Source of the DNA: Nanobdellota archaeon
GTDB lineage: Archaea > Nanobdellota > Nanobdellia > Pacearchaeales > GW2011-AR1
NCBI GenBank assembly: GCA_018815925.1
Contig: JAHIWS010000021.1
Location: 25,641-89,640, forward strand
Length of the DNA stretch: 64,000 nt
Direction: 5' to 3'
Made by a program: the position numbers and the translations under genes. Below are positions 503-24,584 of this stretch, piece by piece (the stretch's first letter is position 1; each line of letters starts with the position of its first letter). The notes under the pieces are model-generated. The model made no database searches, was not told the DNA's origin, and worked only from the letters and a program-made list of their open reading frames with translations.

Positions 503-543
503 ATTAACTAAATCTTTTTAAATAAATTTGTTAGTAAAATAAT

Positions 544-957: not shown

Positions 958-1010
958 ATAGATAATACTTAAATAAATAACTTTTTAATTCTTATTTCCC
1001 ATTTATTTTC

Positions 1011-1953: not shown

Positions 1954-1994
1954 GACTCTATTATTAATATTTATTTTTTAAACATTATTGTTAT

Positions 1995-2498
1995 TTATAA
2001 CTTCTTTTTTCCGATAACCCTTAACATATCAAAAAAAGACTTTTTCTCAAAGTCCGTTATCCTCATATCTTCAAGATTAATATTAATTTTTATTATTCCT
2101 AAACTTGAAATAAAAATTGTTCCAACTAAAATTTCTTTTTTATCAAACTTTTGCAATGAAAAGAGTAATTTTTGAATCTTTTTATAAATTTTTTCTTCTT
2201 GCATTTTTTCTTTAATCATCTTTTCAACTTCATTAAAATCAAAACTAATATTTAAATTAATCTTTTTTGGAACTTCATCTCCAATCATCTCAACAGGCAC
2301 AAAATTTTCAGACTCAAGTTGAAAACTAAATATTTTTTTATCTTTTGGTATATAAAAATCAAAATGATTTTTATTATCATTTTTTTCTAAATCAATAATA
2401 AAAAAACCACTACAAGGATATGCATCTGGAAATTCTGTAATAAATTTCTCATACTTATCTAAACTCTTAAGTTTCTCAACATAAAATTGAAGGTTCAT
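1995..2498 (-). CDS. hypothetical protein
   Basis: 167-aa ORF whose start overlaps the thrS stop by 4 nt (operon-like). No recognisable motif. Confidence 0.45.
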   Translation of the reverse strand: MNLQFYVEKLKSLDKYEKFITEFPDAYPCSGFFIIDLEKNDNKNHFDFYIPKDKKIFSFQLESENFVPVEMIGDEVPKKINLNISFDFNEVEKMIKEKMQEEKIYKKIQKLLFSLQKFDKKEILVGTIFISSLGIIKININLEDMRITDFEKKSFFDMLRVIGKKKL

Positions 2499-4186
2499 TT
2501 TCTACTAGAAATCTCTACTTTCAAACCTTTAATAAATTTATCTAATTTCACATTCTCAATTTTTTTGTTTCCTCTTGTTCTGATAGCCACACTATTACTT
2601 TTTTCTTCTCTATCTCCTACAACTAATATATAAGGAATTCTATTTAACTCAGCATCTTTAACTTTAGCAGAAACTGTTGTTGACCTTAAATCAGAATCTA
2701 ACCTAATATTAGGAATTTCCTTAATCTTTTTTATTATCTTTTCAGCATATTTTTTATTCTTATCAGTAAAACTAAGCACCCTAACTTGAGTTGGAGCTAA
2801 CCAGGTAGGAAACCTTCCATTATAATGCTCAATTAAAATACCAATAAATCTCTCCAAGCTCCCATAAATTGCCCTATGCAACATAACAGGTCTTTTTCTT
2901 TTATTGTCTTTATCAATATACTCTAAATCAAATCTTTCAGGCATTGAAAAATCCAATTGAATTGTCCCAACCTGCCATTCTCTATTTAAAGAATCCTTAA
3001 CATGAAAATCTATTTTAGGACCATAAAAAGCACCATCACCCTTATTTAATTTAAAAGTAATTTTTTTCTTTTTTAAAACTCTTTCTAAAATTTTTTCAGA
3101 TTTATCCCAAATTTTATCTAATCCTATTCTTATTTTTGGTCTTGTTGAAAGTTCTATCCTATATTTTAAATTAAATTTATCATAAAAATAACCAATAAGA
3201 TCAATAAGTGCATTAATTTCATTTTCTAATTGATCTTCAGTGCAAAAAACATGTGCATCATCTTGAATAAATTGAATAACTCTAAATAAACCAGCCAAAA
3301 CCCCACTCAACTCTTGCCTATGAACAGTTCCAAACTCTCCAACCCTCAAGGGCAAATCCCTATATGATTTGATATTTGTCCTGTAAACAAGCATACCTCC
3401 TGGACAATTCATTGGCTTAACTAAAAACTTTCTTTTTTCATACTCAGTTACAAAATTATTTTCTTTATATTTATCCCAATGGCCAGAAACAATCCATAAT
3501 TTTTTATCCATAATTTCGGGAGTAGAAATTAATTCATAATTTTCTTTTCTTAAAATCTCTTTTGAAAAATTAATTAATTCATCCCTAATAATTAATCCAT
3601 TATTATGCCAAAAAACCATTCCAGGAGCAGCTTCATTAAAACTAAATAAATCCATTTGCCTTCCAATTATCCTGTGATCATTTTCTTTTAGTTTAGAAGT
3701 ATCAAGTTTTGCTTTAGAAATTTCTCTTAAAAGTTGTTTAGAATCATATTTTTTATCATCTTCAACACCCTGAATATTTATCTCTCTACTCAACTCACTC
3801 AAAGGATGACCTTTAACTTTTAATTCAAATTCTTTATAATATCCAAAAGGTGCTCTCACAACTTTGAAATTTTTATTTAAAATCTTTTCAGCTTCTTTCA
3901 TTACATTCACTGCAACATCAGGAGAACTTAAATTTTTAGACAAATGAGCATAAGGATAAATAACAATATTCTTAACCTTAACTTGTGTTGCAATATCTTT
4001 AATCTCTTTAAAATAACTATTTACAGAATTCTTACTATCTGTTTTTTCAACAGCAGTCAAAATTACTAAACACTCTTTTACTTCCTGACCTTTTTTCTGC
4101 TTCTCACTCAGCTCTTCTACTTTTTTCAAGGCCTTTTTCAAAGGCTTAAATTTAATATAATCACAATGTAATGATAGTATTTTCAT
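2495..4186 (-). CDS. thrS: threonyl-tRNA synthetase, archaeal type with N-terminal editing domain
   Basis: N-terminus MKILSLHCDYIKFKP resembles the archaeal ThrRS editing domain. Class II motifs LFRVIQFIQDDAHVFC and HRAIYGSLERFIGILIEH are present, plus a C-terminal anticodon-binding region. GGAGGT lies 14 nt upstream of the ATG. Confidence 0.92.
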   Translation of the reverse strand: MKILSLHCDYIKFKPLKKALKKVEELSEKQKKGQEVKECLVILTAVEKTDSKNSVNSYFKEIKDIATQVKVKNIVIYPYAHLSKNLSSPDVAVNVMKEAEKILNKNFKVVRAPFGYYKEFELKVKGHPLSELSREINIQGVEDDKKYDSKQLLREISKAKLDTSKLKENDHRIIGRQMDLFSFNEAAPGMVFWHNNGLIIRDELINFSKEILRKENYELISTPEIMDKKLWIVSGHWDKYKENNFVTEYEKRKFLVKPMNCPGGMLVYRTNIKSYRDLPLRVGEFGTVHRQELSGVLAGLFRVIQFIQDDAHVFCTEDQLENEINALIDLIGYFYDKFNLKYRIELSTRPKIRIGLDKIWDKSEKILERVLKKKKITFKLNKGDGAFYGPKIDFHVKDSLNREWQVGTIQLDFSMPERFDLEYIDKDNKRKRPVMLHRAIYGSLERFIGILIEHYNGRFPTWLAPTQVRVLSFTDKNKKYAEKIIKKIKEIPNIRLDSDLRSTTVSAKVKDAELNRIPYILVVGDREEKSNSVAIRTRGNKKIENVKLDKFIKGLKVEISSRK

Positions 4187-4416
4187 AAGACGTTTTTAAC
4201 CTCCATATGATAAAACGGCTTTGACGAAAAATCTATGGTTTTTCAGTCGAATAAAATAAACATTCATTATTTATAAAACTAACCAAATATAATTTTAAAA
4301 ATAAAATCTATTAAGAACAAAACCAATCTACAAAATAATAAACTAAATTAAAAATATTTCTAAAAATCTCTACAAAACTAACTAAAAAAAATCATAGGAA
4401 AAATAAAAAAATAAAA

Positions 4417-4869
4417 TTAAGCAACTTTTCCTGCAATACTTCCACTAGATGTCAAAGGTAATGAACTTCCTGATCTTGTATAACCAACATTAATATCTCC
4501 ACTTATAGTATCTCCAGAACTTAAACCAGTACAACCAGTCCAAGTAAATACAGTTGTTTCACCAGCAGTCATATCAACTGCTACAGGAGCAGTACAAGTA
4601 CCAGTAGAAGGCTGACTAATACTCAATGTAGGAGTTACAGCTGTTATATCTTCTCCACCATTATTTCTAATTTCAACTTGTATTTGTGTAGCACTATAAG
4701 TTACTCCGACTCCATAAAATGGAGCACTAACAACTACTGAATTAGAAACTAATGTGCTAGGTCTAAAATAAATTGCAATAACAGCAATAACAATTATTGC
4801 AGCTAAAATAGCCCAACCATAGGTCATCAAAAATTCCATAGCAGCCTGACCTCTTTTTTCTTCTCTCAT
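4417..4869 (-). CDS. archaeal type IV pilin-like protein (class III signal peptide)
   Basis: N-terminus MREEKRG/QAAMEFLMTYGWAILAAIIVIAVIAI has a basic stretch, a G/Q cleavage motif, Glu at +5 and a hydrophobic helix. The C-terminal part is Thr/Ser/Gly-rich. Confidence 0.8.
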   Translation of the reverse strand: MREEKRGQAAMEFLMTYGWAILAAIIVIAVIAIYFRPSTLVSNSVVVSAPFYGVGVTYSATQIQVEIRNNGGEDITAVTPTLSISQPSTGTCTAPVAVDMTAGETTVFTWTGCTGLSSGDTISGDINVGYTRSGSSLPLTSSGSIAGKVA

Positions 4870-5023
4870 ATTTTACCTCCTTTTGATTTTTTGGTTTTAA
4901 AAACTTATATCTTAACGTAGATAATTTAGTATTTAAATCTTGTCTTTTTATTAATTTTATATTAATGAAATTTTAATAAATTAATTTCTCGTCCTTAATA
5001 ATAATTTTCAAAAATAATCTTTT

Positions 5024-5944
5024 TTAAACCCCATACTTTGTATCATGACCGTCCTCAGCATCAATCTTAAACCACGACGGCATATTAGGAACACTATCAT
5101 GTGCAACAGGATTTAAACTACTAAAATAAATATAATCAATACAAGATTTGTCACGAATAATAAGTGCTTGTGCAGAAAGATCTGGAATATTTACAAAACT
5201 CTCAATACCATTAATATTAGGGCCAATGTTTCCTTCAAACCTATCTAAAAAACTAGGTGCTTCAGAATTAGCAGCATAATAACCTTTATCAACATGATCT
5301 ACTAAACCAGTAGCATCTCCTCCAGCAGAATAAGCACCTTCATAAGGAGTCTGACTTATTTTTCTTGAAATTCTAGCATAAGTATTAATAGTAAAAAAAG
5401 GATCTTCAAAAGAAGTCACAGGAATTAAAATTGAAATTACTTGAGTCTTTTCCCATCTTGCTAAATCTGTTCTATCTTCCATTACAAAATCAGAAGTAAG
5501 AGTAATATTCACATACCAAGGATCATTTTGGCTAATATTTAAAACAGAATTATTAAGAGTTATATCCACATTTATTTTTCTTGCTTTATTATTTAAAGAA
5601 TCAACAATATCCTCATAAGTTGCTCCAATTAAAATTGTACTATTTGCCGGCACTCCTAAAATAGTTGCATTAAAAAAAGCTTCTTGAAAAAAACCATCAA
5701 TATCAGGAATATAAACTCCTGAGGAAGTTATTTGATTTTCTGCTAAAAATAAAATCCTAAATCCAGAAATATAAAGTTGTCTTTCAAGATTATCTTCAAC
5801 AGAAAATAGAAAAGAATCCATACTAGAAACCCTTGTCTTAATTGATTTGTTTTCAGAAAAATAAGAAAATAACTCAAAAGATAAAAACATCAAAGAAATT
5901 AAAAAAATTGCAATTAATGTAAAGAACTGGCCTGATTTATTCAT
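5024..5944 (-). CDS. pilus-associated protein with pilin-like N-terminus
   Basis: MNKSG/QFFTLIAIFLISLMFLSF resembles a class III signal. The start overlaps the upstream phosphatase gene stop by 4 nt. Confidence 0.5.
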   Translation of the reverse strand: MNKSGQFFTLIAIFLISLMFLSFELFSYFSENKSIKTRVSSMDSFLFSVEDNLERQLYISGFRILFLAENQITSSGVYIPDIDGFFQEAFFNATILGVPANSTILIGATYEDIVDSLNNKARKINVDITLNNSVLNISQNDPWYVNITLTSDFVMEDRTDLARWEKTQVISILIPVTSFEDPFFTINTYARISRKISQTPYEGAYSAGGDATGLVDHVDKGYYAANSEAPSFLDRFEGNIGPNINGIESFVNIPDLSAQALIIRDKSCIDYIYFSSLNPVAHDSVPNMPSWFKIDAEDGHDTKYGV

Positions 5945-6345
5945 CTTAACACAACCTCCAAACCATCAACTCTCTTTATTATTTTTTTAATTACCTCTTT
6001 AATCTTCTTAGTGTCCTTTTGATTTGTATCTGAAATTTTCCAGACAATTAATTTTTTAACTCTTCCTTTAAATAAAGATGCTGGAACATTATTTGCAACT
6101 ATCACAACAACATCTTGATTCTTTATTAACTTCTCACTAAGACCTCTTGTCCTCCTGTTGATTTTCAAACCAAATTTTTTTCCAATATCAACTAATTTTT
6201 TATTAACGGAAAACCCTTTAAAAATACCTGCACTTTTAACCCTAAATTTTTTATTGATCTTTTTAAAATAAGTCTCAGCTATTTTACTCCTAAATCTATT
6301 ATGCTTGCAAACAAATAAAATATTTTTCTTCATCTTCATCTCCAA
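5941..6345 (-). CDS. low-molecular-weight protein-tyrosine phosphatase / ArsC-like
   Basis: P-loop ILFVCKHNRFRS matches C-X5-R-S at the expected N-terminal position. About 130 aa. Overlaps both neighbours (10 nt and 4 nt). Confidence 0.7.
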   Translation of the reverse strand: MEMKMKKNILFVCKHNRFRSKIAETYFKKINKKFRVKSAGIFKGFSVNKKLVDIGKKFGLKINRRTRGLSEKLIKNQDVVVIVANNVPASLFKGRVKKLIVWKISDTNQKDTKKIKEVIKKIIKRVDGLEVVLR

Positions 6346-8873
6346 ACTCTTGCTTGAACTTCAGTCTCCCAAACAAAAGGAATTCCATTTACCTCAAATG
6401 AAGCTATTGTAAGCTCATTTTCTTCAAATTTAGTTTCTACTCTTCCATCTCCATCTAAATCCAAAGACAAAAGCAAATCATAAATAGCATAATCAATTGC
6501 ATCATTAGGATTAAACACATAACCTGCAGAAGTATAGGAACAAATTTCAGTTCCAGAATAACTAGGTGGAAAAACCATTGTTGAATTTGTCCCATCTTCA
6601 AATTCAATTGTCCATATACAACCTTTTGCAGAAGCAACAATAGGTGAAAAACCAGAAATATTTTTAGCAACAGAATAAATAATTTTATTATATTGTGACC
6701 CACTAGTAAAATTTTCAGACCCAACACCTAAAGAAACTCTTACAGAATTTTCTCCTGGTCTTACTTCACTTAAAGGGATATTAATTAAATAAGGATCTCC
6801 TAACTCAGTATAAATATCTCCATACTCTGAAAGATTAAAAATAGTGTTCCAGCCACCTAAATTATTATCATAAATTTCTACCTTACTTGTCCATCTTGAA
6901 CCAGAATAAGAAGTAACACTGACTTCATAAGGAGCAGCATCAAAAGGCAAAGAAAAATTCCCTATAGGTGCAGTACTCCCAAAAATAGGGCTTTCAGCAC
7001 TTATAAGTAATTTATGAGAAAGAGTCCTATCAAAATCAACAGAAATATAAGAACTAGGATACACCTCTGTATAAACTCCCTGAGCAACAATTGTCTGTTC
7101 AGAATATGCTGCATTAATAATCTGTTCAGCAACATCCTCATAAATATCAACTAAATCACTAACATTTCCAGAATAAAAATCACCTCCACCACAATCAGCA
7201 ATTGCCTCTGTTGTATTTTTATCTGCATCATCTCCAAAAGCAATAGCATAAACAATTATCCCATAATCATCATAAGCATCACAAGCAGCTTTAATAGCAT
7301 CATCACCAGCATCATCAGTAATACCATTATAATTTAAATCAGGTGTAACACCTTGTTTTGGGCAATGCACATTCGCTTCACCATCAGTCATAACAACAAT
7401 AGACCTAAAATTCTCAGGAACTGACTGATTATTAAGCCTATCAACTCCTTCATTAATACCACAACAAATACAAGTTCCTCCACCATCATTCCAACCAGCA
7501 ACAACATTATGAAGAGCAACAACATCATTTGAAAGATCATATGAATCACCCATCCGGACATAACCTTCATATCCAATTAATCCAACCCTATTTATAGAAG
7601 AACTTAAAACAGCATCAATAAAAACATTGTTAGCTTGCTTTGCTAAATCTAACTTAGTAGTCCAAACACCATTACAAAGAAAACCTTCACAAGTAGCCTG
7701 GTTCCAATTACAAATAAAATAAGGTGTGACAGAACACCAACCCTCACCCATACTACCAGATAAATCAGTAACAGAAAAAACATCTGCATTTCTAGTTAAA
7801 TTAAGAACATAGGAAACATTTTCCAGTCCAAATCTAAAAGGAATTGTTTTGTAATCCATACCTAAATAATCATTTAAATTATTCCTAAGATAAGCATCTG
7901 TCAAAGTATATTCAACATTTGTTCCATTTCCAGAATAAAGAGTTCTATTTCCTATAGTGAAAAAAACATTATAAGGACTAGTATAATTTAAAAACACTTC
8001 CATACTCTGCAAAAGTCCAGGAACATAAAAACTATCATAAATATTGATAAGACCTTTAATTCCAGGAAATTTAAATTTTCCATTAGTATGAATAGATTGA
8101 GATTCATTATAAATTGACTTGACAAAACCGCCTGCAATATACAAATTTTCACTAGAAGTAAAATAAAGATAATTATTATCTGTAACAAATCCAGAAGAAA
8201 TATTAAATCCAAAAGGCTCGCCTGGAGTTGCATTATAGGAAACAGCTGAGCCACCATTAACAGATAAATTAAAAGGACCTGAAAAAACAGCTTCTCCCCT
8301 AGTAAAAACAACATTTTCTCCTAAATCAAGAGTAATATTTCCATCTCCAATATAACCCCCTAAATAAAAATAACTAAATTTGTTTTCTGAAAATAAAAAA
8401 GCCCTAGAAGAAAAACCACTAGAAGAAGAATTAACATTATTATTAATTCCACTAATAATCTGCCTTGAAGTCCAAACATCTTTTGCACCACCTAAATCAG
8501 TTTCATTAGAATTTGCTATTAACATATTATTAAAATACAGACCAACATTTTCATCCAAACCCAAATCATTTAAAATTGAATTTGCTAAAATCTCTGCATT
8601 CATATCAGAATTTGCATAAAACTCCCCTATTTGTTCTAAAACACTCTGATTAAGGTTAGTTATATTACTACTAAATATTAAAGCCTGAGCTTCTGAATTA
8701 TCAAGTTCCACTATTTTTATATTTGATAATACTTCTAAAAGATCATATTGTACATTAACTTCTTGAGACACGTGTGTTGAAGAAGGCTTAATAAAAAGAA
8801 CAATACCTAGAATAATTACTAATGCTAAAAATGCATCTAAACTAAAATAATAACCTCTTCTATTTTTTCTCAT
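6336..8873 (-). CDS. large pilin-like von Willebrand factor A (vWA) domain protein, candidate pilus adhesin
   Basis: Start preferred at Met23 of the listed ORF (MRKNRRG/YYFSLDAFLALVIILGIVLFI, pilin-like). MIDAS DVFSVTDLSGSMGE and VVMTDGEAN are present. Many NxS/T sequons. Confidence 0.75.
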   Translation of the reverse strand: MRKNRRGYYFSLDAFLALVIILGIVLFIKPSSTHVSQEVNVQYDLLEVLSNIKIVELDNSEAQALIFSSNITNLNQSVLEQIGEFYANSDMNAEILANSILNDLGLDENVGLYFNNMLIANSNETDLGGAKDVWTSRQIISGINNNVNSSSSGFSSRAFLFSENKFSYFYLGGYIGDGNITLDLGENVVFTRGEAVFSGPFNLSVNGGSAVSYNATPGEPFGFNISSGFVTDNNYLYFTSSENLYIAGGFVKSIYNESQSIHTNGKFKFPGIKGLINIYDSFYVPGLLQSMEVFLNYTSPYNVFFTIGNRTLYSGNGTNVEYTLTDAYLRNNLNDYLGMDYKTIPFRFGLENVSYVLNLTRNADVFSVTDLSGSMGEGWCSVTPYFICNWNQATCEGFLCNGVWTTKLDLAKQANNVFIDAVLSSSINRVGLIGYEGYVRMGDSYDLSNDVVALHNVVAGWNDGGGTCICCGINEGVDRLNNQSVPENFRSIVVMTDGEANVHCPKQGVTPDLNYNGITDDAGDDAIKAACDAYDDYGIIVYAIAFGDDADKNTTEAIADCGGGDFYSGNVSDLVDIYEDVAEQIINAAYSEQTIVAQGVYTEVYPSSYISVDFDRTLSHKLLISAESPIFGSTAPIGNFSLPFDAAPYEVSVTSYSGSRWTSKVEIYDNNLGGWNTIFNLSEYGDIYTELGDPYLINIPLSEVRPGENSVRVSLGVGSENFTSGSQYNKIIYSVAKNISGFSPIVASAKGCIWTIEFEDGTNSTMVFPPSYSGTEICSYTSAGYVFNPNDAIDYAIYDLLLSLDLDGDGRVETKFEENELTIASFEVNGIPFVWETEVQARVWR

Positions 8874-8895
8874 TTTTTGTCTTTTTTTGATTTGT

Positions 8896-9363
8896 TCATT
8901 TCCACACAAACAATTGAAATTTAACGGGTTTATTTTCATAAATAGTCAGTCTAGTAGTCTGGATTAAATTATCTACTTCTGTAGTATTTAGTATACCAAC
9001 ATAATTTCGAGGAACTCCGCTAATCTTCATATTATTTATACTAAAATAAAAATTAAAATTTAATCCTAAGAAATTCCTTTTATCATTATCACTTAAGGCA
9101 TCAAAATTTTCTAATTTTGTTTGATTAACTTTGTTATCAGATAAAATTCCAACACCAACCTCACTTAAAATTAATTCAGAAGCTAAATTACCCTCATAAA
9201 AAAATTCATCTAACTTATCTTTTGATTGAGAAGAAAGATTTATAGCATAATAAAATAAAATAAGAAGGCCAAATAAAAAAATAATTGTTGCCACAACTAG
9301 ATCAAAACTCCAAATCTGACCTTTCTTTCCCTTAGATTTTTTAATTGATAAAAACTGTTCCAT
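8896..9363 (-). CDS. pilin-like protein (class III signal-like N-terminus)
   Basis: KGKKG/QIWSFDLVVATIIFLFGLLILFY. The start overlaps the upstream pilin gene end by 23 nt. Confidence 0.6.
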   Translation of the reverse strand: MEQFLSIKKSKGKKGQIWSFDLVVATIIFLFGLLILFYYAINLSSQSKDKLDEFFYEGNLASELILSEVGVGILSDNKVNQTKLENFDALSDNDKRNFLGLNFNFYFSINNMKISGVPRNYVGILNTTEVDNLIQTTRLTIYENKPVKFQLFVWK

Positions 9364-16918: not shown

Positions 16919-17980
16919 TTAATTTCTTAAAATGCTCTTATCCAAATCACTTTTACTAACTTTTTTAAGACTAGACTGAAATTTTTTTACAAATTTAGAT
17001 AATTCTTCAAACAACCTTTCTTTAACATCTTTTGTTAATATTTTTCCAGATTTGTAATCTTCAACAAGATTCTTACTTTGTTTTTCATCTAAAAATAATT
17101 TAGTCAAATAAAAGCAAGAAACATCTTTGTCAGAATCTGCTCCTTTTTTTCTCTGCTCTTCAGCTGTAACTGCTCCACCACTAAAAGCCCTATTAACCTT
17201 TTTCTTTATCACCTCTAAACTATCATTTAAAAAAATAGCATTATTTTTTGATTTAGACATTTTTTTCCCATCTATTCCTGGAAGAAAAAAACTATGAAGA
17301 ATTGCTGGTAATCTATATCCAAATTTACGTGCAACATCTCTTGAAATCCTTATGTGAGCATCTTCATCAGGCCCAATTATAACTAAAACATTTTTAATAT
17401 TAAATTTTTCTTGTGGAAACAAAACATGTGCGGACTGAACAGCCGGATAAAAATACATCCCAGGATTATCTTCATTTTTATACCCATAAGTAGCTTTAAT
17501 TTCAGAAAGGGTTATTTTTTTAGAAAGTTTAACTGCAAAATTATAAATATCTGTGTATATCTGATCAATTATAAAAAAAGTATTCTTAGGATCAAACCCA
17601 TAAGCTATTAATTCTTTAGCTAATTCTAAGGAATTTTTTAATGCTTCTTCTTGATCTTTTACTTTTCCAGTAATATAACTCTCATCGTCAGAGATAGGGA
17701 TAAAAACAGGAAGCTTATATTTTTTCTGGAAAAAAAGATTTGTATCAAAAACAGGTTTATGTCCTAAATGTATTGTTCCTGAAGCATTAAACCCAGAAAG
17801 AATAGCACATTTTTCACCTTTTTTTAAAGCAGAAAAAAATTTATCAAAATCTCTGTGAGAATAAATAAGATTTTTCTGAAAAGTATAAAATTGAGGCAGT
17901 TTACCTAATTTGGATATACGCACAGCTCCAAATTTCTCCACGAGCTTCCTATTATCTTCTTCTAAATTATTAATATCCAT
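16919..17980 (-). CDS. trpS: tryptophanyl-tRNA synthetase (archaeal/eukaryal type)
   Basis: HIGH-type GTIHLGH, ISDDESY (equivalent to the TDDEK element of TrpRS) and the KMSKS loop GKKMSKS. Confidence 0.85.
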   Translation of the reverse strand: MDINNLEEDNRKLVEKFGAVRISKLGKLPQFYTFQKNLIYSHRDFDKFFSALKKGEKCAILSGFNASGTIHLGHKPVFDTNLFFQKKYKLPVFIPISDDESYITGKVKDQEEALKNSLELAKELIAYGFDPKNTFFIIDQIYTDIYNFAVKLSKKITLSEIKATYGYKNEDNPGMYFYPAVQSAHVLFPQEKFNIKNVLVIIGPDEDAHIRISRDVARKFGYRLPAILHSFFLPGIDGKKMSKSKNNAIFLNDSLEVIKKKVNRAFSGGAVTAEEQRKKGADSDKDVSCFYLTKLFLDEKQSKNLVEDYKSGKILTKDVKERLFEELSKFVKKFQSSLKKVSKSDLDKSILRN

Positions 17981-18022
17981 AAATAAGAAAAACAGAAGAA
18001 GTTTATAAAGATTTCACACTAA

Positions 18023-18466
18023 TTATGGTACCTGTGCATTGCTTAATATTTCTTGCACTTCTTCATAAGTCATTGTCTGAAGACCAGATTCTTTAGCAGG
18101 ATTAGAGCACACACCAACTTGCTCAACAGGAACAGGTCCTGCTTTATATAAATAAAACATTAAATAAGTTACATCAAACATATTAACAAGACCATTATTA
18201 TTAACATCACCACAAGAAGTAATTGGATTACAAAAAGGTGCAGACCCTCCTTTGCATAAATAAGATATTAAATAGATTACATCAAACATATTGACTGTTT
18301 TATCTCCATTTGCATCTGCACATAATGGTGTAAAAGGAGAAAAAGATATTTCCCCATCATTCATAAAATTATCAAACTCCACAGCAAAAAATACCTCAAG
18401 AATTAAAATTCCCATCAAAAAACTAATCAACCATTCCTCCTTACCCATGAACTTTCCAAGCACCAT
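18023..18466 (-). CDS. membrane-anchored dockerin-domain protein
   Basis: N-terminal TM helix. Two dockerin/EF-hand-like repeats: DANGDKTVNMFDVIYLISYL and DVNNNGLVNMFDVTYLMFYL. Confidence 0.7.
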   Translation of the reverse strand: MVLGKFMGKEEWLISFLMGILILEVFFAVEFDNFMNDGEISFSPFTPLCADANGDKTVNMFDVIYLISYLCKGGSAPFCNPITSCGDVNNNGLVNMFDVTYLMFYLYKAGPVPVEQVGVCSNPAKESGLQTMTYEEVQEILSNAQVP

Positions 18467-18483
18467 ATGTTTTTAAAGGTTAT

Positions 18484-18492
18484 AGAAGTATA
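18484..18492. repeat. 9-bp target-site duplication, left copy (AGAAGTATA)
   Basis: Identical 9-mer at 22165..22173, each one nt outside the terminal inverted repeats. Confidence 0.8.
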
Positions 18493-18493
18493 A

Positions 18494-18509
18494 GCTTTGT
18501 TTAATAAGT
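18494..18509. repeat. left terminal inverted repeat (GCTTTGTTTAATAAGT)
   Basis: Exact reverse complement of 22148..22163. Confidence 0.8.
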
Positions 18510-18528
18510 AGATTCTGTTTAAAAAGTC

Positions 18529-19221
18529 CTAATTTCTTTTATATATAACTTTCTCTCTCCAACTATCTAATTCTACTAATTTTTTTATATCAAATCTTAT
18601 ATGTTCTAAATCTGTGCCTGTTTTTGGATATGATTTAACTCCTGCAATAATTGTTTTGTGTGTTGGAAAAAATTGCCCATTAGGAATACAGATAAAAGAG
18701 ATTTCTTCTACGAGATTACTTTGTGACCAAGTAACTCTTAAAATATAACTAAGATTAGGCACTTTTCCAAAAAGTTTATGATTTTCATATCTATGTAATT
18801 TAGGTTTCCAAATAAATTTCTTTCCATCTCCCTTTATCACCTCATGGGCATTATCAAAGTCAAAAGATGTCTGATTTTGCCTTATATCTATTCTATTACT
18901 CCTCTCTCTTGCGTCACCATCAGTATCTAAAATAGTTTTAGCGTCTATATGAATAATTGCATCCCCACACTCATAACAACTATCTGAAGCACCAGACATA
19001 GAAGCTACACCCCAATCTAAACGCCTTGCAATCATTGCATTCATTATATTTTCTGAAGCAGTTTCAATAGGATTAACCTTATTTGTAGGTAGATAATCAG
19101 GCATATTTTTTTGGCTGTTAATCTCATTGACAAATCTTCCAATATTATTAGAAAGGATATTACAAATAACATCCATATATTTTTTTTCTAAGTGTTCAAG
19201 ATGGGAGTTGTCTAACACCAT
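18529..19221 (-). CDS. putative type II restriction endonuclease
   Basis: Overlaps the 3' end of the C5-methyltransferase gene by 26 nt. Candidate PD-(D/E)XK core ECGDAIIHIDAKT. No specific family recognised. Confidence 0.55.
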   Translation of the reverse strand: MVLDNSHLEHLEKKYMDVICNILSNNIGRFVNEINSQKNMPDYLPTNKVNPIETASENIMNAMIARRLDWGVASMSGASDSCYECGDAIIHIDAKTILDTDGDARERSNRIDIRQNQTSFDFDNAHEVIKGDGKKFIWKPKLHRYENHKLFGKVPNLSYILRVTWSQSNLVEEISFICIPNGQFFPTHKTIIAGVKSYPKTGTDLEHIRFDIKKLVELDSWREKVIYKRN

Positions 19222-20485
19222 TAAATAGTGTAGTATTTACCATTTTTAACTCTTCCCATTTTTTTTCAGGGTTATTATTTACTACATATTTCTTTATGGT
19301 TTTAGCTAAGTGTTCTCCAATTAAGGGTGGAACTGCATTACCTATTTGCCTATGTTGGCTTGATAAACTCCCATAAAATATAAAATCATCTGGAAAACTC
19401 TGTAATATTGCACATTCTCTCGCTGTTAATCTTCTTTTTCTATTTACATGAATTTCTGGAACACTTGCTGTTATTGTGTCGCTTGGTCTATCCCAATTAG
19501 TAACTCTTAAAGATTGCTCAAATTTTATTTTTCTTTCTTCAACCTCTGTAACCATTTTATCGTATTTATCATCAAAGCCCAAAATCTTTTTTAGTTTAGC
19601 CCAATCTTTTGGAGATGGAATTGAGCCAGATATATCTTTCCTAAACCAATGTCCCGCAGTATGTCTATAACCTAAAATCTTATCTATCTTATGCGTTGTG
19701 ATTTTTGCTTTTGCTCTCCACATTTTAAGATAATCACAAATCTCTGCCTGATTAACTTCGTTCTTTCTGGCAATATACTTTCCACTAACTTTTTTTGAAC
19801 CAATGTGATTAGGAATAAGTTTACCTTCTTCTGTGTGTGGTTCTGGTAAATGTCCTATTGCATCTTTTACAGAAATAACATGAGGTAATTTATTGTAATC
19901 CTCTGGTTTAATAAAATCAGGAATTGGTGTTTTATATCCATTCTTATGAGTTATCTTTGGAAATGTATTTGGTGCGTTTATTCTGTTGCCCATAATAATA
20001 ACTCTTTCTCTAAATTGTGGAACGCCATAATAAGCACAATTTATAATAAATGGCTTTTCTACTTTGTAACCTATTGAATTAAAATCTTTTATAATCATCT
20101 CAATAACTTTCCCATTACCTAATGATAAAATTCCCTTGACATTCTCTGCGATGAAAAATTTAGGTTGAGTTTCCCTTATTATTCTCAACATCTCCTTATA
20201 CAAGAAGTTTCTTTTGTCTTTTACATTTCTTTTATTGTTAGCAACTGAAAAACCCTGACAAGGGAAACCCCCTAATAAAACATCTGCATTTTTAGGAATT
20301 TCAGAACTGGGTATTTTAGTTATATCGCCTAAAACAATACGATTATCAATATTTTTTTTATAAGTTTCAACACTATCTCTATCAAAATCATTAGCCCAAA
20401 TTATTTCGTATCCTGCTTTCTTAAATCCTAAATCTAATCCCCCACAACCCGAAAACAGACTAACAACTTTTGGTTTATTTGCCAT
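19196..20485 (-). CDS. dcm: DNA (cytosine-5)-methyltransferase
   Basis: Motif I VVSLFSGCGGLDLGF, motif IV GGFPCQGFS, motif VI IAENVKG, motif VIII QFRERV, motif X QIGNAVPP. Confidence 0.93.
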   Translation of the reverse strand: MANKPKVVSLFSGCGGLDLGFKKAGYEIIWANDFDRDSVETYKKNIDNRIVLGDITKIPSSEIPKNADVLLGGFPCQGFSVANNKRNVKDKRNFLYKEMLRIIRETQPKFFIAENVKGILSLGNGKVIEMIIKDFNSIGYKVEKPFIINCAYYGVPQFRERVIIMGNRINAPNTFPKITHKNGYKTPIPDFIKPEDYNKLPHVISVKDAIGHLPEPHTEEGKLIPNHIGSKKVSGKYIARKNEVNQAEICDYLKMWRAKAKITTHKIDKILGYRHTAGHWFRKDISGSIPSPKDWAKLKKILGFDDKYDKMVTEVEERKIKFEQSLRVTNWDRPSDTITASVPEIHVNRKRRLTARECAILQSFPDDFIFYGSLSSQHRQIGNAVPPLIGEHLAKTIKKYVVNNNPEKKWEELKMVNTTLFNGVRQLPS

Positions 20486-20687
20486 TATTTTTTACCTCTT
20501 TTTTAGTTCCATTTTTCTTTTCTAAATCCCAATATGCACTTTTACAATTTGGGCATATTCTCGGCTTTTCTTTTAATTCTCCTTCAAGTTGTGATAATTC
20601 AACACGAGGTATCCACTCGTGACCACATCTTAAACACTTGAAAGCATTTACTACCTTCTTAATCTTATACTTTTCTTTGTTGTTCAT
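20475..20687 (-). CDS. small zinc-ribbon protein, first gene of the R-M operon
   Basis: CLRCGHEW...CPNCKSAYW forms two CxxC knuckles. Overlaps the methyltransferase start by 11 nt. Confidence 0.55.
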   Translation of the reverse strand: MNNKEKYKIKKVVNAFKCLRCGHEWIPRVELSQLEGELKEKPRICPNCKSAYWDLEKKNGTKKEVKNNGK

Positions 20688-20808
20688 TGGTTTATTTAAG
20701 TTTAACTCCTTTATATAATTATCGTTTATAAAAACAATGTTAATATTAGTTAATTTTATTGTAATGTAGTATATAAGTATATTTTTATCGTCGGTTATTA
20801 TATTGTAT

Positions 20809-20824
20809 TTACTTATATAGGTAA
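20809..20824. promoter_or_regulatory. imperfect palindrome TTACTTATATAGGTAA (operator and/or TATA candidate)
   Basis: One-mismatch copy of the perfect palindrome at 20852..20867. Contains a TTATATA core. Confidence 0.4.
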
Positions 20825-20851
20825 GAAATAGAAAGGTTTATATAGTAGTTA

Positions 20852-20867
20852 TTACTTATATAAGTAA
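20852..20867. promoter_or_regulatory. perfect 16-bp palindrome TTACTTATATAAGTAA abutting the transposase ATG
   Basis: Self-complementary over all 16 nt. Ends 1 nt before the start codon at 20869. Confidence 0.45.
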
Positions 20868-20868
20868 G

Positions 20869-22128
20869 ATGATAAAAGTAAATAATCAAATACAAGCAAC
20901 GGATATAAGAAAACTTAACAGAGAAGAAAGAGGTAAGTTAATTTTTAAATCAGGAAGAATAAGAAAACAAAATGACTTCTGGGTTGTTGGTTCTCAAACT
21001 TCTTTCAAAGCATACAAAGTTAAATTTAATGGACACAAGCCAACTTGTAACTGCCCTGATTGTGAATTAAGAAAGACAAAATGCAAACACATCTATGCAG
21101 TTGAATTTTATATTAAAAGACAAATAGATGAAGAAGGAAAGATAACAGAAACCAAAGGTATTAAAATTAAGTATAAGCAAGATTGGAGTGCCTATAATAA
21201 ATCTCAAACAAACGAAAAGTTAATTTTTATGAAGTTGTTAAAAGATTTGTGCGAGAATGTAGAACAGCCAGAATATAAATTTGGTCGTCCAACTTTACCT
21301 TTTTCAGATATGCTTTTTGGCTCTGTAATGAAAGTTTATACAGGATTTTCTTTAAGACGATTTATGTCTGATATGAAAATTGCCCACGATTACGGATTAG
21401 TTGATAATGTGCCTTGTTATTCTTCTCTATCTAACTTTATGAATAAAGAAGAAATTAAGGATATTTTAGAAAATCTAATAACCTTAAGTTCATTACCACT
21501 TAAAGAAATTGAAAAGGATTTTGCAGTTGATAGTTCAGGATTTTCTACTTCAAGATATGCTCGTTGGTTTGATTATAAATGGGGTAAAGAGAGAAAATAT
21601 AAGGTTTGGTTAAAGGCACATTTATGTTCAGGTGTAAAAACTAATATAATCACAGGAGTTAAAATTACAGAAGGACAAGAAAATGATAGTCCTCAATTAG
21701 CAGAATTAGTTAGAAAAACGGCAGAAAACTTTAATCTTAATGAGGTATCTGGAGATAAGGCATACAATTCAAAAAATAATTTTAAGATTATTGAAGAAGT
21801 TGGAGCAACACCTTTTATTCCTTTTAAGAAAAATGTTACAGGAAAAAGAGGTGGTTGTTTAATTTGGGGTAAAATGTATCATTATTTTATGTATAAACAT
21901 GAGGAATTTTTAGAACACTATCATAAAAGGTCTAACTCTGAAACAATTTTCCACATGATTAAGACAAAGTTTAGAGGAGATATTAAGAGCAAAAAACAAA
22001 CAGCACAATTTAACGAACTTCTGATTAAAGTTTTATGTCATAATATTTGTGTTGTAATTCAAGAAATAAACGAATTAGGAGTTAAAGCAGAATTTAGTCT
22101 TGAACATACAAGAGAAATTTCTGTTTAA
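20869..22128 (+). CDS. DDE transposase (IS4/IS5-superfamily, DDE_Tnp_1-like) with N-terminal SWIM zinc finger
   Basis: SWIM motif CNCPDCELRKTKCKHIYA. Catalytic candidates AVDSSGF, VSGDKAYNS and RSNSETIFHMIKTKF (D, D, E). Confidence 0.85.
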   Translation: MIKVNNQIQATDIRKLNREERGKLIFKSGRIRKQNDFWVVGSQTSFKAYKVKFNGHKPTCNCPDCELRKTKCKHIYAVEFYIKRQIDEEGKITETKGIKIKYKQDWSAYNKSQTNEKLIFMKLLKDLCENVEQPEYKFGRPTLPFSDMLFGSVMKVYTGFSLRRFMSDMKIAHDYGLVDNVPCYSSLSNFMNKEEIKDILENLITLSSLPLKEIEKDFAVDSSGFSTSRYARWFDYKWGKERKYKVWLKAHLCSGVKTNIITGVKITEGQENDSPQLAELVRKTAENFNLNEVSGDKAYNSKNNFKIIEEVGATPFIPFKKNVTGKRGGCLIWGKMYHYFMYKHEEFLEHYHKRSNSETIFHMIKTKFRGDIKSKKQTAQFNELLIKVLCHNICVVIQEINELGVKAEFSLEHTREISV

Positions 22129-22147
22129 AAAGTATGATGATTTATTG

Positions 22148-22163
22148 ACTTATTAAACAAAGC
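22148..22163. repeat. right terminal inverted repeat (ACTTATTAAACAAAGC)
   Basis: Exact reverse complement of 18494..18509. Confidence 0.8.
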
Positions 22164-22164
22164 C

Positions 22165-22173
22165 AGAAGTATA
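22165..22173. repeat. 9-bp target-site duplication, right copy (AGAAGTATA)
   Basis: Identical to 18484..18492. Confidence 0.8.
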
Positions 22174-22188
22174 TAAAAAAGCACAAAA

Positions 22189-22515
22189 CTAATCTGCAGA
22201 AGTAGTATTTCTATATATAACCTGTCTAATTTCAGAACTATCAATAACACCATTACTATCTAAATCATAAGATAAAATTTCATTAAATTTTCTTTCCCTA
22301 TAACTATTTTTTATCTCTTTATTCCATTGTTCATAGGACTTTCCTTCGCTAAATGGAAAAAGCCTATTAATAGGATCATAATTAACAAGGGGTATGGTAA
22401 CAAGACCACCTAAAGGAAATACAATTAAAAAAAAAGCCAATTGTTTACCAAGCTCTTTAAGTGCATTTTTTCTAGATAAAGGTTGAGAAATTCCTTTTTC
22501 TAAACTCATATACAT
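22189..22515 (-). CDS. small membrane protein with C-terminal EF-hand calcium-binding loop
   Basis: TM helix LAFFLIVFPLGGLVTIPLV. DLDSNGVIDSSE fits the canonical 12-residue EF-hand loop (D1, D3, N5, G6, I8, E12). Confidence 0.55.
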   Translation of the reverse strand: MYMSLEKGISQPLSRKNALKELGKQLAFFLIVFPLGGLVTIPLVNYDPINRLFPFSEGKSYEQWNKEIKNSYRERKFNEILSYDLDSNGVIDSSEIRQVIYRNTTSAD

Positions 22516-22566
22516 CAGAATAAACCAACACTTAAATATTTTTCTCTATTATAATCTACAAGAATA

Positions 22567-22574
22567 TTTATAAA
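22567..22574 (+). promoter_or_regulatory. TATA box (TTTATAAA) 29 nt upstream of ATG 22596
   Basis: Archaeal TATA consensus at the recurrent spacing. Confidence 0.45.
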
Positions 22575-22595
22575 TAATGGTCTTCTAACTCTGGT

Positions 22596-24584
22596 ATGAA
22601 AAAGAGTATATTAATTATATTTGGAATCTTATTATTTAGCTCCTTTGTAACCTCTGAAGTAATAATTAACTCACAGCCAACAGGAATTTACAATTTAGGA
22701 GATACAATTTCTATTCCTGTAACAATAAAAACAGTTAATAAAATATCAGGAACTTTTCAAATGGATTTGATTTGTAATGGACATCTAATAAATTTCTATA
22801 AAAATGGTGTAGGATTATCAGCAGGAGAAGAACAAAAAATGGACTCTTCACTTGTTCTAACAAAAGAAATAATTGGGGAAATTAAAGGAAATTGTGTAGT
22901 AAAATCAACTCTTGGAGAAGATTATATTTTATCAGATGAATTTAAAATATCAGATTTAATTGATATCCAAATAACAAATGAAGAAACTGAATTTGCTCCA
23001 GGAGATTACTTAATTCTAGAAGGAGAAGCAACAAAAGAAAATCAAGAAGATGTTGAAGGATTTATAGAATTTCAAATAGGAACAGATAATTCCACAGAAT
23101 TAATTACCCATATAGAATCTATAAATAAGGGATTTTTCCTAGCAAATATTTCAATACCCAAAAATATGAAGGCCGGAACCCACACTGTAAATATAAATGC
23201 TTATGAAAAAGACAATGCAAATCAAATCACAAACCAAGGTACTACAAGTTATAATATTTTAATAAAACAAATACCAACAAGTCTTGAAATAGTTCTTGAA
23301 GAATCAAAAATAGAACCAGGAAATAATTTAAGAGTAAAGGCAATTCTCCATGATCAAACAGGAGAAAAAATAGAAACATTCACAGTAATAACAATTAAAA
23401 ATAAAAAAGACAAAATTCTAGAACAAACCGAAATAGCAACAGATGAATTTTTAGAATATCCAATAAAAAACAATGAGCCCCCATCAGAATGGAAAATAGT
23501 AGCTATTTCAAATAAACTAACAAGCGAATCACAATTTCAAATAATGGAAAAAAAAGAAGTAAATATAGAAATAATCAATACAACATTAACTCTAACTAAT
23601 GCAGGAAACGTCCCTTACAATGATCTTGTTTTAATAAAAATAGGAAATGAGTCTCTAAACTTAAATGTTAGTTTAAAAGTAGATGAAGTGCAAAAATACA
23701 TCTTAAGTGCCCCTGATGGAGAATATCAAGTAGAAATAATGGGAATCAGCGAAAATGTTGCACTTACAGGAAACACAATTGATGTAAGGGAAGCATCAAC
23801 AGGAGTAATAAGCCTAGTAAGATATCCTATTGTGTGGATATTTATGATTGCTATTTTAGGATTTGTTGCATTCACAATTTTTAGAAAAGGTTATAAAAGA
23901 AGTTTTGTGGGGAGAATTATCCCTAAAAAAAAGCAAAAAGATAAATTTTCTTTAATTTCTTTAAGCAAAAAATCAATAATTAAAACCAAAAACAAAGCAG
24001 AACTTTCTTTATCAATTAAAGGAGAAAAACAAAATGCTAGTATTGTTGGTTTAAAAATTAAAAATCTAAAAGAAATAGAATCAAAAAAAAGTAATGCAGA
24101 AGAAATTTTACAAAAGGTAATTGACATGGCAGAAGGAAATAAAGCAGCAATTTATGAGAATCAGGAGAATATATTTTTCATACTAGCCCCAATAAAAACA
24201 AAAACTTTCAAAAATGAAAAAAATGCCTTAGAAATTTCTCAAAAAACCAAAGAGATACTGAACCAACATAATAAATTAGCTAAACAAAAAATAAATTTTG
24301 GCATTTCAATGGATTATGGAACAATTATTGCAAAACAAGAACCAAATGTCCTAAAATTTATGAGTATGGGAACATTAATTACAAATACAAAAAAAATTTC
24401 ATCTCTAGCTGATAATGAAATCTTATTAGGGGAAAAAATAAATGAAAGACTTACTTCTGAAATAAAAACAGAAAAACAAAGAAAACATAAAACCCCTGTG
24501 TATACAATAAAACAAATAAAAACATCTCCAAAAAATCATGAAAAATTCATCAGAACTTTTCTAGACAGAATGGAAAAGAAGTGA
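22596..24584 (+). CDS. single-pass membrane protein: extracellular beta-rich region, TM helix, cytoplasmic cyclase-homology-like (degenerate) domain
   Basis: Signal peptide (ILIIFGILLFSSFVTS) and a TM helix (YPIVWIFMIAILGFVAFTIF). The C-terminal pattern ASIVGLKIKN...INFGISMDYGTIIAK...MGTLITNTKKISSLADNEILLGE resembles class III cyclase topology but lacks the metal-binding Asp residues. Confidence 0.6.
   Translation: MKKSILIIFGILLFSSFVTSEVIINSQPTGIYNLGDTISIPVTIKTVNKISGTFQMDLICNGHLINFYKNGVGLSAGEEQKMDSSLVLTKEIIGEIKGNCVVKSTLGEDYILSDEFKISDLIDIQITNEETEFAPGDYLILEGEATKENQEDVEGFIEFQIGTDNSTELITHIESINKGFFLANISIPKNMKAGTHTVNINAYEKDNANQITNQGTTSYNILIKQIPTSLEIVLEESKIEPGNNLRVKAILHDQTGEKIETFTVITIKNKKDKILEQTEIATDEFLEYPIKNNEPPSEWKIVAISNKLTSESQFQIMEKKEVNIEIINTTLTLTNAGNVPYNDLVLIKIGNESLNLNVSLKVDEVQKYILSAPDGEYQVEIMGISENVALTGNTIDVREASTGVISLVRYPIVWIFMIAILGFVAFTIFRKGYKRSFVGRIIPKKKQKDKFSLISLSKKSIIKTKNKAELSLSIKGEKQNASIVGLKIKNLKEIESKKSNAEEILQKVIDMAEGNKAAIYENQENIFFILAPIKTKTFKNEKNALEISQKTKEILNQHNKLAKQKINFGISMDYGTIIAKQEPNVLKFMSMGTLITNTKKISSLADNEILLGEKINERLTSEIKTEKQRKHKTPVYTIKQIKTSPKNHEKFIRTFLDRMEKK

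Follow-up and report, generated by a model that had tools for sequence, protein, structure and literature searches.

Results

A bounded unit with four genes

The DNA analyzed here is a 64,000-nucleotide stretch of contig JAHIWS010000021.1 from a Nanobdellota archaeon, to which we refer as the window. Within it, four genes are enclosed by short inverted repeats (IRs) that are themselves flanked by a 9-bp direct repeat (Table 1). The plus-strand gene encodes a transposase with an N-terminal SWIM zinc finger and a DDE catalytic domain. Divergent from it, three minus-strand genes encode a small zinc-ribbon protein, a C5 cytosine DNA methyltransferase and a putative endonuclease whose structural model is BglI/SfiI-like; an initial annotation of this DNA had described the same four open reading frames (ORFs). 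The minus-strand genes overlap, by 11 nt between zinc ribbon and methyltransferase and by 26 nt between methyltransferase and endonuclease. The evidence set out below makes it very probable that positions 18493-22164 constitute an intact, non-composite transposon, or transporter insertion sequence (IS), that descends from the IS903 group within the IS5 family and carries restriction-modification (R-M) genes as cargo.

Table 1. Features of the element and of its immediate borders, with positions in the window and the basis of each assignment
Feature	Position	Strand	Basis
Target-site duplication, left copy, AGAAGTATA	18484..18492	.	Only combination of IR and direct repeat in the window; 0 of 100 simulations
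Left terminal IR, AGCTTTGTTTAATAAGT, 17 nt, position 1 = A	18493..18509	+	14/18 match to the IS903 end GGCTTTGTTGAATAAATC
Left subterminal IR-like copy, same orientation as left IR	18512..18527	+	12/16 identical to IR; offset +19
Cargo gene 2: predicted Type II restriction endonuclease, 230 aa, BglI/SfiI/MwoI-like PD-(D/E)XK	18529..19221	-	MwoI_N tag, structural model, Foldseek
Cargo gene 1: C5 cytosine DNA methyltransferase, 429 aa	19196..20485	-	Pfam, NCBIfam, motifs
Backbone gene: 70-aa C4 zinc ribbon, first of the cargo operon	20475..20687	-	Kept with unrelated cargo
Conserved divergent promoter region (putative), 181 bp	20688..20868	.	78% mean column identity across 8 aligned elements
Transposase, 419 aa, N-terminal SWIM and IS5/IS903-type DDE domain	20869..22128	+	Pfam, NCBIfam, IS903B alignment
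Right subterminal IR-like copy, opposite orientation to right IR	22118..22133	+	12/16 identical to IR; offset +31; overlaps transposase stop codon
Right terminal IR, read inward GGCTTTGTTTAATAAGT	22148..22164	-	16/18 match to IS903 IR
Target-site duplication, right copy, AGAAGTATA	22165..22173	.	Combination of IR and direct repeat

The borders can be read directly from the sequence. The two copies of the direct repeat are identical over 9 bp, and the IR GCTTTGTTTAATAAGT at 18494-18509 has its exact reverse complement (16/16) at 22148-22163. On each side a single base separates IR from duplication: A at 18493 and C at 22164. The perfect 16-bp and 9-bp repeats are as the initial annotation had read them, except that the intervening base is here reassigned to the element. 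Because comparison with 49 relatives and with IS903 shows this base, a G at 93 of the 100 ends in the family, to be the terminal nucleotide, the element proper measures 3672 bp and has 17-bp ends that differ at position 1 alone.

To what extent such repeats could arise by chance was estimated from 100 simulated windows generated with a first-order Markov model. The window has a G+C content of 28.5% and contains four perfect 16-bp IRs within 10 kb, compared with a simulated mean of 2.7; a 16-bp IR by itself is thus unremarkable here. Together with a 9-bp direct repeat at an offset of 0-2, a 16-bp IR was found only at this one place, and the 100 simulations produced no such combination. Accordingly, of the signature of transposition that had been proposed at the outset, IR and duplication together stand and the IR alone does not, and the significance of the borders derives from the two jointly and from the family evidence. 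The objection that the IR might be a common intergenic motif was also checked: the 64-kb window contains only the two copies of the 16-mer at the borders, and it is therefore no such motif. When the element was compared with the window by tblastn and blastn, one copy of the transposase was found; a composite transposon was ruled out, as the cargo is not flanked by two IS copies. An Rfam search of positions 17500-23000 gave no match.

Relationship of the transposase and ends to IS903

The transposase matches the Pfam families DDE_Tnp_1 (PF01609, 77 bits) and SWIM (21.6 bits, with a cut-off of 19.6). The SWIM ligands are C60, C62, C72, and H74, the DDE triad is D221, D296, and E358, and residues Y351-R354-E358-K365 form the signature Y-(2)-R-(3)-E-(6)-K. 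None of these DDE, Y-R-E-K, and SWIM C-C-C-H residues varies among 36 homologs that are 45-89% identical to the protein. The protein aligns with the IS903B transposase over 304 amino acids (21% identity, E 5e-9), and a tblastn search of plasmids found IS5-family transposases only, matching residues 105-405. Residues 1-104, which include the SWIM finger, have no counterpart in IS903. A Mutator/MULE-like transposase was considered and ruled out: DDE_Tnp_1 and SWIM were the only domains detected, no MULE-family match was found, and the SWIM finger lies N-terminal to the catalytic domain.

The ends lead to the same group. The IS903 end used for comparison was verified as a 44-mer present at 100% identity in thousands of enterobacterial plasmids, under IS903B or IS5-family transposase annotations; on plasmid Rts1, IS903B is 1057 bp long, with 18-bp IRs GGCTTTGTTGAATAAATC and a 9-bp target-site duplication (TSD). 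The right end of the window element, read inward as GGCTTTGTTTAATAAGTC, is identical to the IS903 IR at 16 of 18 positions, and the left end at 14 of 18. The element therefore has what is expected of the IS5/IS903 group, namely a DDE_Tnp_1 transposase with the signature, a 9-bp TSD and IRs of about 18 bp of the IS903 type, which starts with GGC. It does not have the form of a plain, transposase-only IS of about 1 kb. Its length of 3672 bp, the three additional genes and the added SWIM domain thus make it an IS903-group derivative, whether termed a transporter IS (tIS) or a unit transposon. End sequence, TSD length and transposase alignment all agree with the initial guess of the IS903 group of IS5, and IS903 is the closest characterized relative.

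At each end, the terminal IR is followed by an IR-like copy of itself, in an asymmetric layout that recurs at the same offsets in nearly all elements examined. On the left, the second copy stands at +19 in the same orientation, with a third at +39 in some elements; on the right, the copy stands at +31 in the opposite orientation, with another at +51 in some elements. The variable core of the subterminal copies matches the IR of the element in which they lie at 4.9 and 4.6 of 6 positions, versus 2.7 and 2.6 of 6 when compared with elements that have a different IR core. Because the core covaries with the element's own IR, the copies are probably functional, most simply as additional transposase-binding sites. 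The inverted pair at the right end was insignificant as an RNA hairpin (-7.3 kcal/mol, z -1.2), and we therefore read it, too, as protein-binding sites.

A family of 50 bounded elements

Searches with the transposase gave more than 6,400 matches, and the source names of the homologs include Pacearchaeota and Nanoarchaeota, consistent with the DPANN-like host that had been proposed from the sequence. We examined about 140 loci: 62 from GTDB genomes, 80 from JGI metagenomes and one from IMG/VR. An element was called when a pair of GCTTTG-type ends enclosed the transposase and was flanked, in the same 1-nt register, by direct repeats of 9 bp. This yielded 25 elements in the genome set (the TSD is perfect in 24 and matches at 8/9 positions in L030), 22 nonredundant elements from metagenomes, one on the IMG/VR contig (L076) and one next to an endonuclease homolog (L073). 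With the window element, the family comprises 50 bounded transposons, 49 of them with a perfect 9-bp TSD and one, L030, with a single mismatch. They occupy 50 different target sites, and their TSDs all differ except for one reverse-complementary pair. Most of these transposons, which number at least 50, sit in DPANN-labeled genomes. Two different elements occur in one genome in three cases: L023 and L024, which share a contig, L026 and L039, and L042 and L045.

The elements measure 1.8-9.0 kb, with a median of 5.3 kb. None of them has the transposase only: in 49 of the 50 elements, the DNA upstream of the transposase exceeds 600 nt or that downstream exceeds 300 nt, and the smallest, L022 (1.8 kb), still carries a 92-aa DUF2569 ORF. 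The unit of about 3.7 kb that had been proposed, with a single transposase and the R-M genes inside, is thus borne out by 49 further elements with the same ends and a 9-bp TSD.

Several members of the wider group are worth describing individually. The closest genome relatives, L009 and L019, encode transposases 86-89% identical to that of the window, and their left ends lie beyond the 6 kb fetched. They have 7.3 kb in common at 88% identity (positions 2-7323 of each), and the similarity ends just past the right IR, which suggests one element of more than 7.3 kb at different sites in two metagenome-assembled genomes. Relatives in bacterial genomes (L050-L052, L054, L057, L062, L066, and L068), with transposases of 44-51% identity, come from Blastocatellia, Pyrinomonadaceae, Terriglobia and Dehalococcoidia and include the closed chromosome OZ244792.1; the family therefore crosses domains. 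Two of them, L050 (2431-7780, with a second transposase copy) and L051 (2109-10004), lie about 40 kb apart with different IR variants on contig DNNE01000076.1 of Blastocatellia bacterium UBA11740. Their TSDs, GAACCATAG and CTATGGTTC, are mutually reverse-complementary and form one 9-mer in contig orientation, a coincidence that is unlikely by chance and that suggests either a repeated target or a rearrangement between the elements. Two further cases may be archaeal contigs placed in the wrong bin: L021, a copy of 66% identity on a 3.7-kb contig assigned to Fusobacteriaceae, and L064, a fragment among Firestonebacteria sequences. L076, a 3923-bp element at 5373-9295 of UViG_3300022860_000148, has IRs identical to those of the window element and the TSD CTTTCTGTA; its 24-kb contig, which is the same as L137 (Ga0222698_1000182), is classed as viral by IMG/VR. 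If that contig, viral by prediction, is truly viral, it would be a vehicle carrying the element between cells.

A conserved backbone and a slot for cargo

When the element was compared by blastn with all loci, more than 25 relatives matched only positions 1-35/37 and about 1981-2036 to 3671. Identity in these blocks is 73-88%, and the interval between them is unrelated cargo DNA. The left block consists of the left IR and the second, IR-like copy, with no other left-hand sequence matching; the right block extends from the zinc-ribbon stop codon through the intergenic region and the transposase to the right end. Elsewhere in the family, cargo is found downstream of the transposase or both upstream and downstream of it.

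The zinc-ribbon gene accordingly falls on the transposase side of this boundary. Its product, which gave only sub-threshold zinc-ribbon matches in Pfam and NCBIfam, is 70-97% identical across elements whose methyltransferases and nucleases are unrelated; in L078, for example, the zinc ribbon is 97% and the transposase 91% identical to those of the window, and the cargo is different. In every case the first cargo gene begins at, or within a few nucleotides of, the zinc-ribbon stop codon (ATGA, TAATG, or TAAAATG), and wherever it is annotated or could be read it is a methyltransferase. Because the zinc-ribbon gene is conserved with the transposase block despite unrelated cargo, it belongs to the transposon backbone and not to the R-M cargo, and its product is probably a regulator, or the gene a leader. 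Of the three-gene R-M operon that the initial annotation had seen as cargo, the methyltransferase and endonuclease thus remain, and the zinc ribbon moves to the backbone.

Between the two divergent backbone genes lies the conserved region listed in Table 1. It contains a TATA-like sequence, CTTTATATAA, at 20709-20718, about 22 nt from the zinc-ribbon start, and a sequence resembling a transcription factor B recognition element with TATA box, AAAGGTTTATATA, at 20832-20844, which ends 25 nt upstream of the transposase start codon. The transposase TATA sequence lies between two 16-bp palindromes, TTACTTATAnAAGTAA, at 20809-20824 and 20852-20867, the second directly adjoining the ATG. All of these motifs are invariant in the 8 aligned elements. 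They would fit leaderless transcripts, with the palindromes as an operator pair for a dimeric repressor, which could be the zinc-ribbon protein or the transposase.

The cargo of the window element is a predicted Type II R-M pair

The methyltransferase matches Pfam DNA_methylase (PF00145, 268 bits) over model positions 2-324 of 324 and NCBIfam dcm (TIGR00675, 245 bits). Its nearest solved relatives are M.HaeIII (1dct, E 2e-53) and M.HhaI, and its translation contains the motifs FSGCGG, GFPCQGFS, ENVKG, QFRER, and GNAVPP.

Sequence searches of PDB, Pfam-A and NCBIfam with the endonuclease gave no match, and its function was therefore assigned from a precomputed Pfam annotation, PF27366 (MwoI_N), and from structure prediction with Foldseek. 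An AlphaFold model built with 42 homologs (pLDDT 88, pTM 0.87) retrieved BglI (1dmu, E 1.5e-13, TM 0.70) and SfiI (2ezv, E 4.5e-9, TM 0.71). In the 42 homologs, D80 and K95 are invariant and D93 is nearly so, and this conservation therefore fits a PD-(D/E)XK site. By its model, then, the 230-aa ORF is a predicted restriction endonuclease of BglI/SfiI/MwoI type. With these Type IIP enzymes it would have in common the fold (TM about 0.7 with BglI and SfiI) and the MwoI_N family tag, whereas sequence identity is only 13-15% and its partner is a 5-methylcytosine (m5C) methylase closest to M.HaeIII. BglI, SfiI and MwoI all cut interrupted GC-rich palindromes, and a target of this kind is a reasonable prediction, by analogy, for the enzyme encoded here.

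Homologs of this R-M pair are found in other settings. L072 encodes a methylase of 87% and a nuclease of 75% identity in a chromosomal setting with neither transposase nor IR. In L071 (83% and 79%) the pair lies in an island with an integrase. L073 (methylase 84%, nuclease 73%) is an independent 3573-bp element with the perfect TSD AACTTACTA, in which the transposase is only 48% identical to that of the window, the zinc-ribbon gene is absent and the nuclease gene is inverted. Because the pair recurs in another transposon and outside any, backbone and cargo have had separate histories. As for the island in L071, a gene for a Vsr-type very-short-patch repair endonuclease (5604-5993) adjoins the nuclease and m5C methylase genes, and GmrSD, NERD, PLD-like, and PD-(D/E)XK genes and a tyrosine integrase lie in the same island.

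Across the family, R-M genes of types I, II, IIG, III and IV dominate the cargo. Among 122 cargo ORFs of the genome set, Pfam matches include N6_Mtase (12), Eco57I (10), Methylase_S (5), HSDR_N_2 (5), MmeI_Mtase (5), N6_N4_Mtase (3), ResIII (3) and C5 methylase (2). The 59 cargo ORFs of the metagenome set gave N6_Mtase (11), Methylase_S (8), Eco57I (5), N6_N4_Mtase (4), D12 methylase (2) and HNH (2), with single matches to an EcoRI-type methylase, a BglII endonuclease and GmrSD. Individual combinations are type III Mod with Res (L010 and L032), a Dam-like methylase with GmrSD (L034), an MT-A70 methylase with MunI (L035), an N6_N4 methylase with an Mrr-like nuclease (L047), an m5C methylase with an HSDR_N-like nuclease (L017) and, in L076, a zinc ribbon with an m5C methylase and an HNH nuclease. 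Other modules also occur: in L025 (5720-12028), genes for a HerA-like ATPase, a NurA nuclease and a primase-like protein of AEP-TOTE type form a TOTE conflict-system module, and L036 (3256-7140) encodes a cyclodipeptide synthase. For many cargo ORFs, such as some in L026 and L041, Pfam gave no match; these might be unrecognized defense genes.

Insertion site

The element is inserted 18 nt upstream of the start codon of the gene to its left, inside a TATA-like run that reads GCTTTTTTATATACTTCT in the reconstructed empty site. The insertion may have altered the promoter of that gene, toward which the cargo operon reads. The product of this gene (18023-18466, minus strand) is 147 aa long and has a dockerin type I domain; the gene contains an internal 63-nt direct repeat, 79% identical, at 18125-18187 and 18233-18295, 108 nt apart.

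Empty sites were sought in two ways. Look-ups of the two flanking proteins led in all cases either to an occupied site or to a contig that breaks off within the transposase. The exact 26-mer AAGGTTATAGAAGTATATAAAAAAGC, which joins flank, one TSD copy and flank, is absent from the JGI metagenomes, a collection that may not include the organism, as the source assemblies are from ENA/Logan. In the Logan contigs of SRR6514274 (L003 and L005), the assembly is interrupted within the transposase gene, near residues 140-153 and on both sides, and the flanking cargo and host genes assemble normally. These breaks are compatible with several transposase variants that have k-mers in common, and also with repeated sequence in the sample, although they are no proof of it.

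Discussion

The anatomy of the element, its membership in a family, the recurrence of its architecture at 50 sites and the modular exchange of cargo are established. We therefore take the window element to be, with high probability, an intact, IS903-derived transposon with R-M cargo. Several observations weigh against this. All 7-8 assemblies found with these exact proteins have the element in one and the same position, a second copy of this exact element was not found, and neither search for an empty site returned one. The match to the NCBIfam model transpos_IS5_2 (NF033579), although it spans transposase residues 105-393 and model positions 2-287 of 289, scores 139.6 bits, 0.4 below the cut-off of 140. 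The left end starts with A in place of the usual G, as do 7 of 100 family ends. Finally, the G+C content of the element (29.5%) is close to that of its surroundings (28.5%), so that composition is no independent mark of foreign origin. Of the recent DDE transposition that the initial annotation had proposed, a DDE element of IS903 type with its TSD is upheld; the word "recent" is not, given that every contig is occupied and no empty site was found.

A different possibility is that the element is intact but immobile, a relic kept because R-M makes its loss costly. The single copy in the window, the constant position in 7-8 assemblies, the missing empty site and the atypical left terminal base all speak for such a relic. 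Against it, the transposase ORF is full length and retains every catalytic and zinc-binding residue, ends and TSD are undecayed, and relatives with 87-91% identical transposases are found at many different sites. We regard a relic as unlikely, though it deserves to be kept in mind.

An insertion in two steps is improbable. Here the backbone would have transposed with other cargo or none, and the R-M pair would have been swapped in later by recombination with another copy of the element. Cargo exchange is indeed frequent, as type I, II and III systems occupy the same slot beside transposases of 82-91% identity, with recurrent breakpoints, and the same R-M pair is found both with the 48%-identical transposase and with no transposon. 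The sequence bears no mark of a second event, however, the left homology arm is only about 35 bp, and arrival as one unit is simpler. Whichever history holds, the R-M genes now lie inside the transposable unit.

A little less probable again is that the zinc-ribbon gene is a controller of the R-M system, which would make the cargo a three-gene operon. Its place at the head of the operon, its overlap with the methyltransferase start and the conserved promoter palindromes, reminiscent of C-protein operators, would fit a controller. Yet zinc ribbons of 70-97% identity stand beside type III Mod/Res, gamma-class N6 methylases, type I M/S genes and m5C methylases with HNH or HSDR_N-like nucleases; nucleotide homology between elements begins at the zinc-ribbon stop codon; and the R-M homologs in L071, L072 and L073 have no zinc ribbon, the neighboring 49-aa ORFs being unrelated.

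That a plain IS merely lies beside a resident R-M system, with the distal left repeat a chance match or solo end and the 9-mers coincidental, is effectively refuted: chance 16-bp IRs are common enough in so AT-rich a window (4 versus 2.7 expected) and IS903 is only 1057 bp long, but no IR-like sequence (at most 3 mismatches) separates the R-M genes from the transposase, an IR with a 9-bp repeat arose in 0 of 100 simulations, the left 35 bp with their subterminal copy are conserved in relatives, and 49 other elements have the same layout and TSDs, as the initial annotation's rejection of this alternative had anticipated.

Under the favored reading of an intact IS903-derived transposon, the backbone comprises a 35-bp left end (terminal IR and direct IR-like copy), a 47-bp right end (inverted IR-like copy and terminal IR) and the genes for the small zinc ribbon and the SWIM-DDE transposase, divergent from a conserved promoter region of about 180 bp. 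The cargo slot extends from the left end to the zinc-ribbon stop codon and here holds a Type II R-M pair, methyltransferase first and endonuclease second. To judge from this anatomy, the transposase would bind terminal and subterminal repeats, with the SWIM finger as a candidate reader of the subterminal copies. By analogy with the IS903 family, DDE cleavage would occur at the GGC termini and the whole 3.7-kb unit would be inserted at a 9-bp staggered cut. The cargo operon would be driven by the transposon's promoter, with palindromes and zinc-ribbon protein regulating expression, and the order of methylase before nuclease would permit safe establishment in a new genome. Once established, the R-M system would, as expected from general R-M biology, protect the host and penalize loss of the element through post-segregational killing. 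Cargo could be swapped by homologous exchange between elements, which would give the observed boundaries, though the left arm available for it is only about 35 bp long; alternatively, selection may have favored insertions at the only permissive junctions.

A broader reading goes beyond the window element, and we offer it tentatively, as a possibility that we would not yet favor. The family might be a dedicated "defense shuttle": a large group of IS903-derived elements with a fixed, promoter-driven cargo slot and zinc-ribbon leader, a new transposase architecture of SWIM finger and asymmetric subterminal sites, and frequent, cassette-like exchange of R-M and other defense modules at precise boundaries. 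On this tentative reading its range would center on DPANN archaea and extend to the relatives in genomes of Acidobacteriota and Dehalococcoidia, and one copy lies on a contig predicted to be viral. Exchange would then possibly depend on a dedicated mechanism rather than only on selection among rare recombinants. If true, this would be the first described passenger-carrying DDE transposon family in archaea, and possibly a major route for R-M systems among ultra-small archaeal genomes.

By itself, the window element looks like a clean, ordinary member, and what is of interest is the family to which it leads. That family is widespread and provides a concrete vehicle for the horizontal spread of R-M among ultra-small archaea. 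As IR and 9-bp TSD delimit mobile defense cargo, its unannotated cargo ORFs could be mined for new defense genes. A single-protein transposase with ends of 35 bp and 47 bp that tolerates 0.3-7 kb of cargo is also a possible genetic tool for archaea.

Comparison with known systems

The family is apparently undescribed. Our literature search, with ISfinder, TnCentral and REBASE outside its scope, found no published description of it. A 2019 survey of archaeal integrated elements reported that transposons with passenger genes, common in bacteria, were undetected in archaea (PMC6563490), and a 2026 survey of archaeal immunity found R-M under-represented in DPANN and does not mention such elements (PMC12988326). 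Mechanism and gene content also set the family apart from the "aloposons", described later as tRNA-targeting elements that contain giant genes (PMC8813620), and a relationship to them was rejected.

Among characterized elements, IS903 and IS903B of Enterobacterales are similar in their 18-bp ends (16/18), 9-bp TSD and DDE_Tnp_1 transposase with Y-R-E-K residues. They are 1057 bp long and encode only a transposase of about 307-323 aa, whereas the window element, at 3672 bp, adds the 104-residue N-terminal SWIM region to a transposase of 21% identity, as well as the divergent zinc-ribbon gene and cargo slot, and resides in a DPANN archaeon. It also has asymmetric subterminal IR-like repeats, and none were seen in the IS903B ends on Rts1. 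A tIS is an IS derivative that carries passenger genes (PMC9330008), and the window element resembles this class in its one transposase, its IS-type IRs and TSD, and its passengers inside the IRs. In the literature, with ISfinder and TnCentral outside the search, we found no tIS that belongs to the IS903 group, that carries R-M cargo in an archaeon or that has a fixed cargo slot expressed from a promoter of the transposon.

Variable cargo rich in defense systems, R-M included, is also a property of Tn7-like transposons (Benler et al. 2021, PMC8649781). These bacterial elements use multi-protein TnsABCD/E machinery and site-specific targets, whereas the family described here has a single IS903-type DDE transposase and no evident target specificity; a relationship to Tn7-like elements was rejected on mechanism and gene content. 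A precedent for the arrangement of the cargo is found in bacterial R-M units that lie within IRs and a short TSD (8 bp in Xanthomonas oryzae) and were read as mobile R-M (Furuta, Abe and Kobayashi 2010, PMC2853133). Those units are isolated cases, mostly with no identified transposase family, whereas here the transposase, the ends and a 50-member family that exchanges its cargo are defined.

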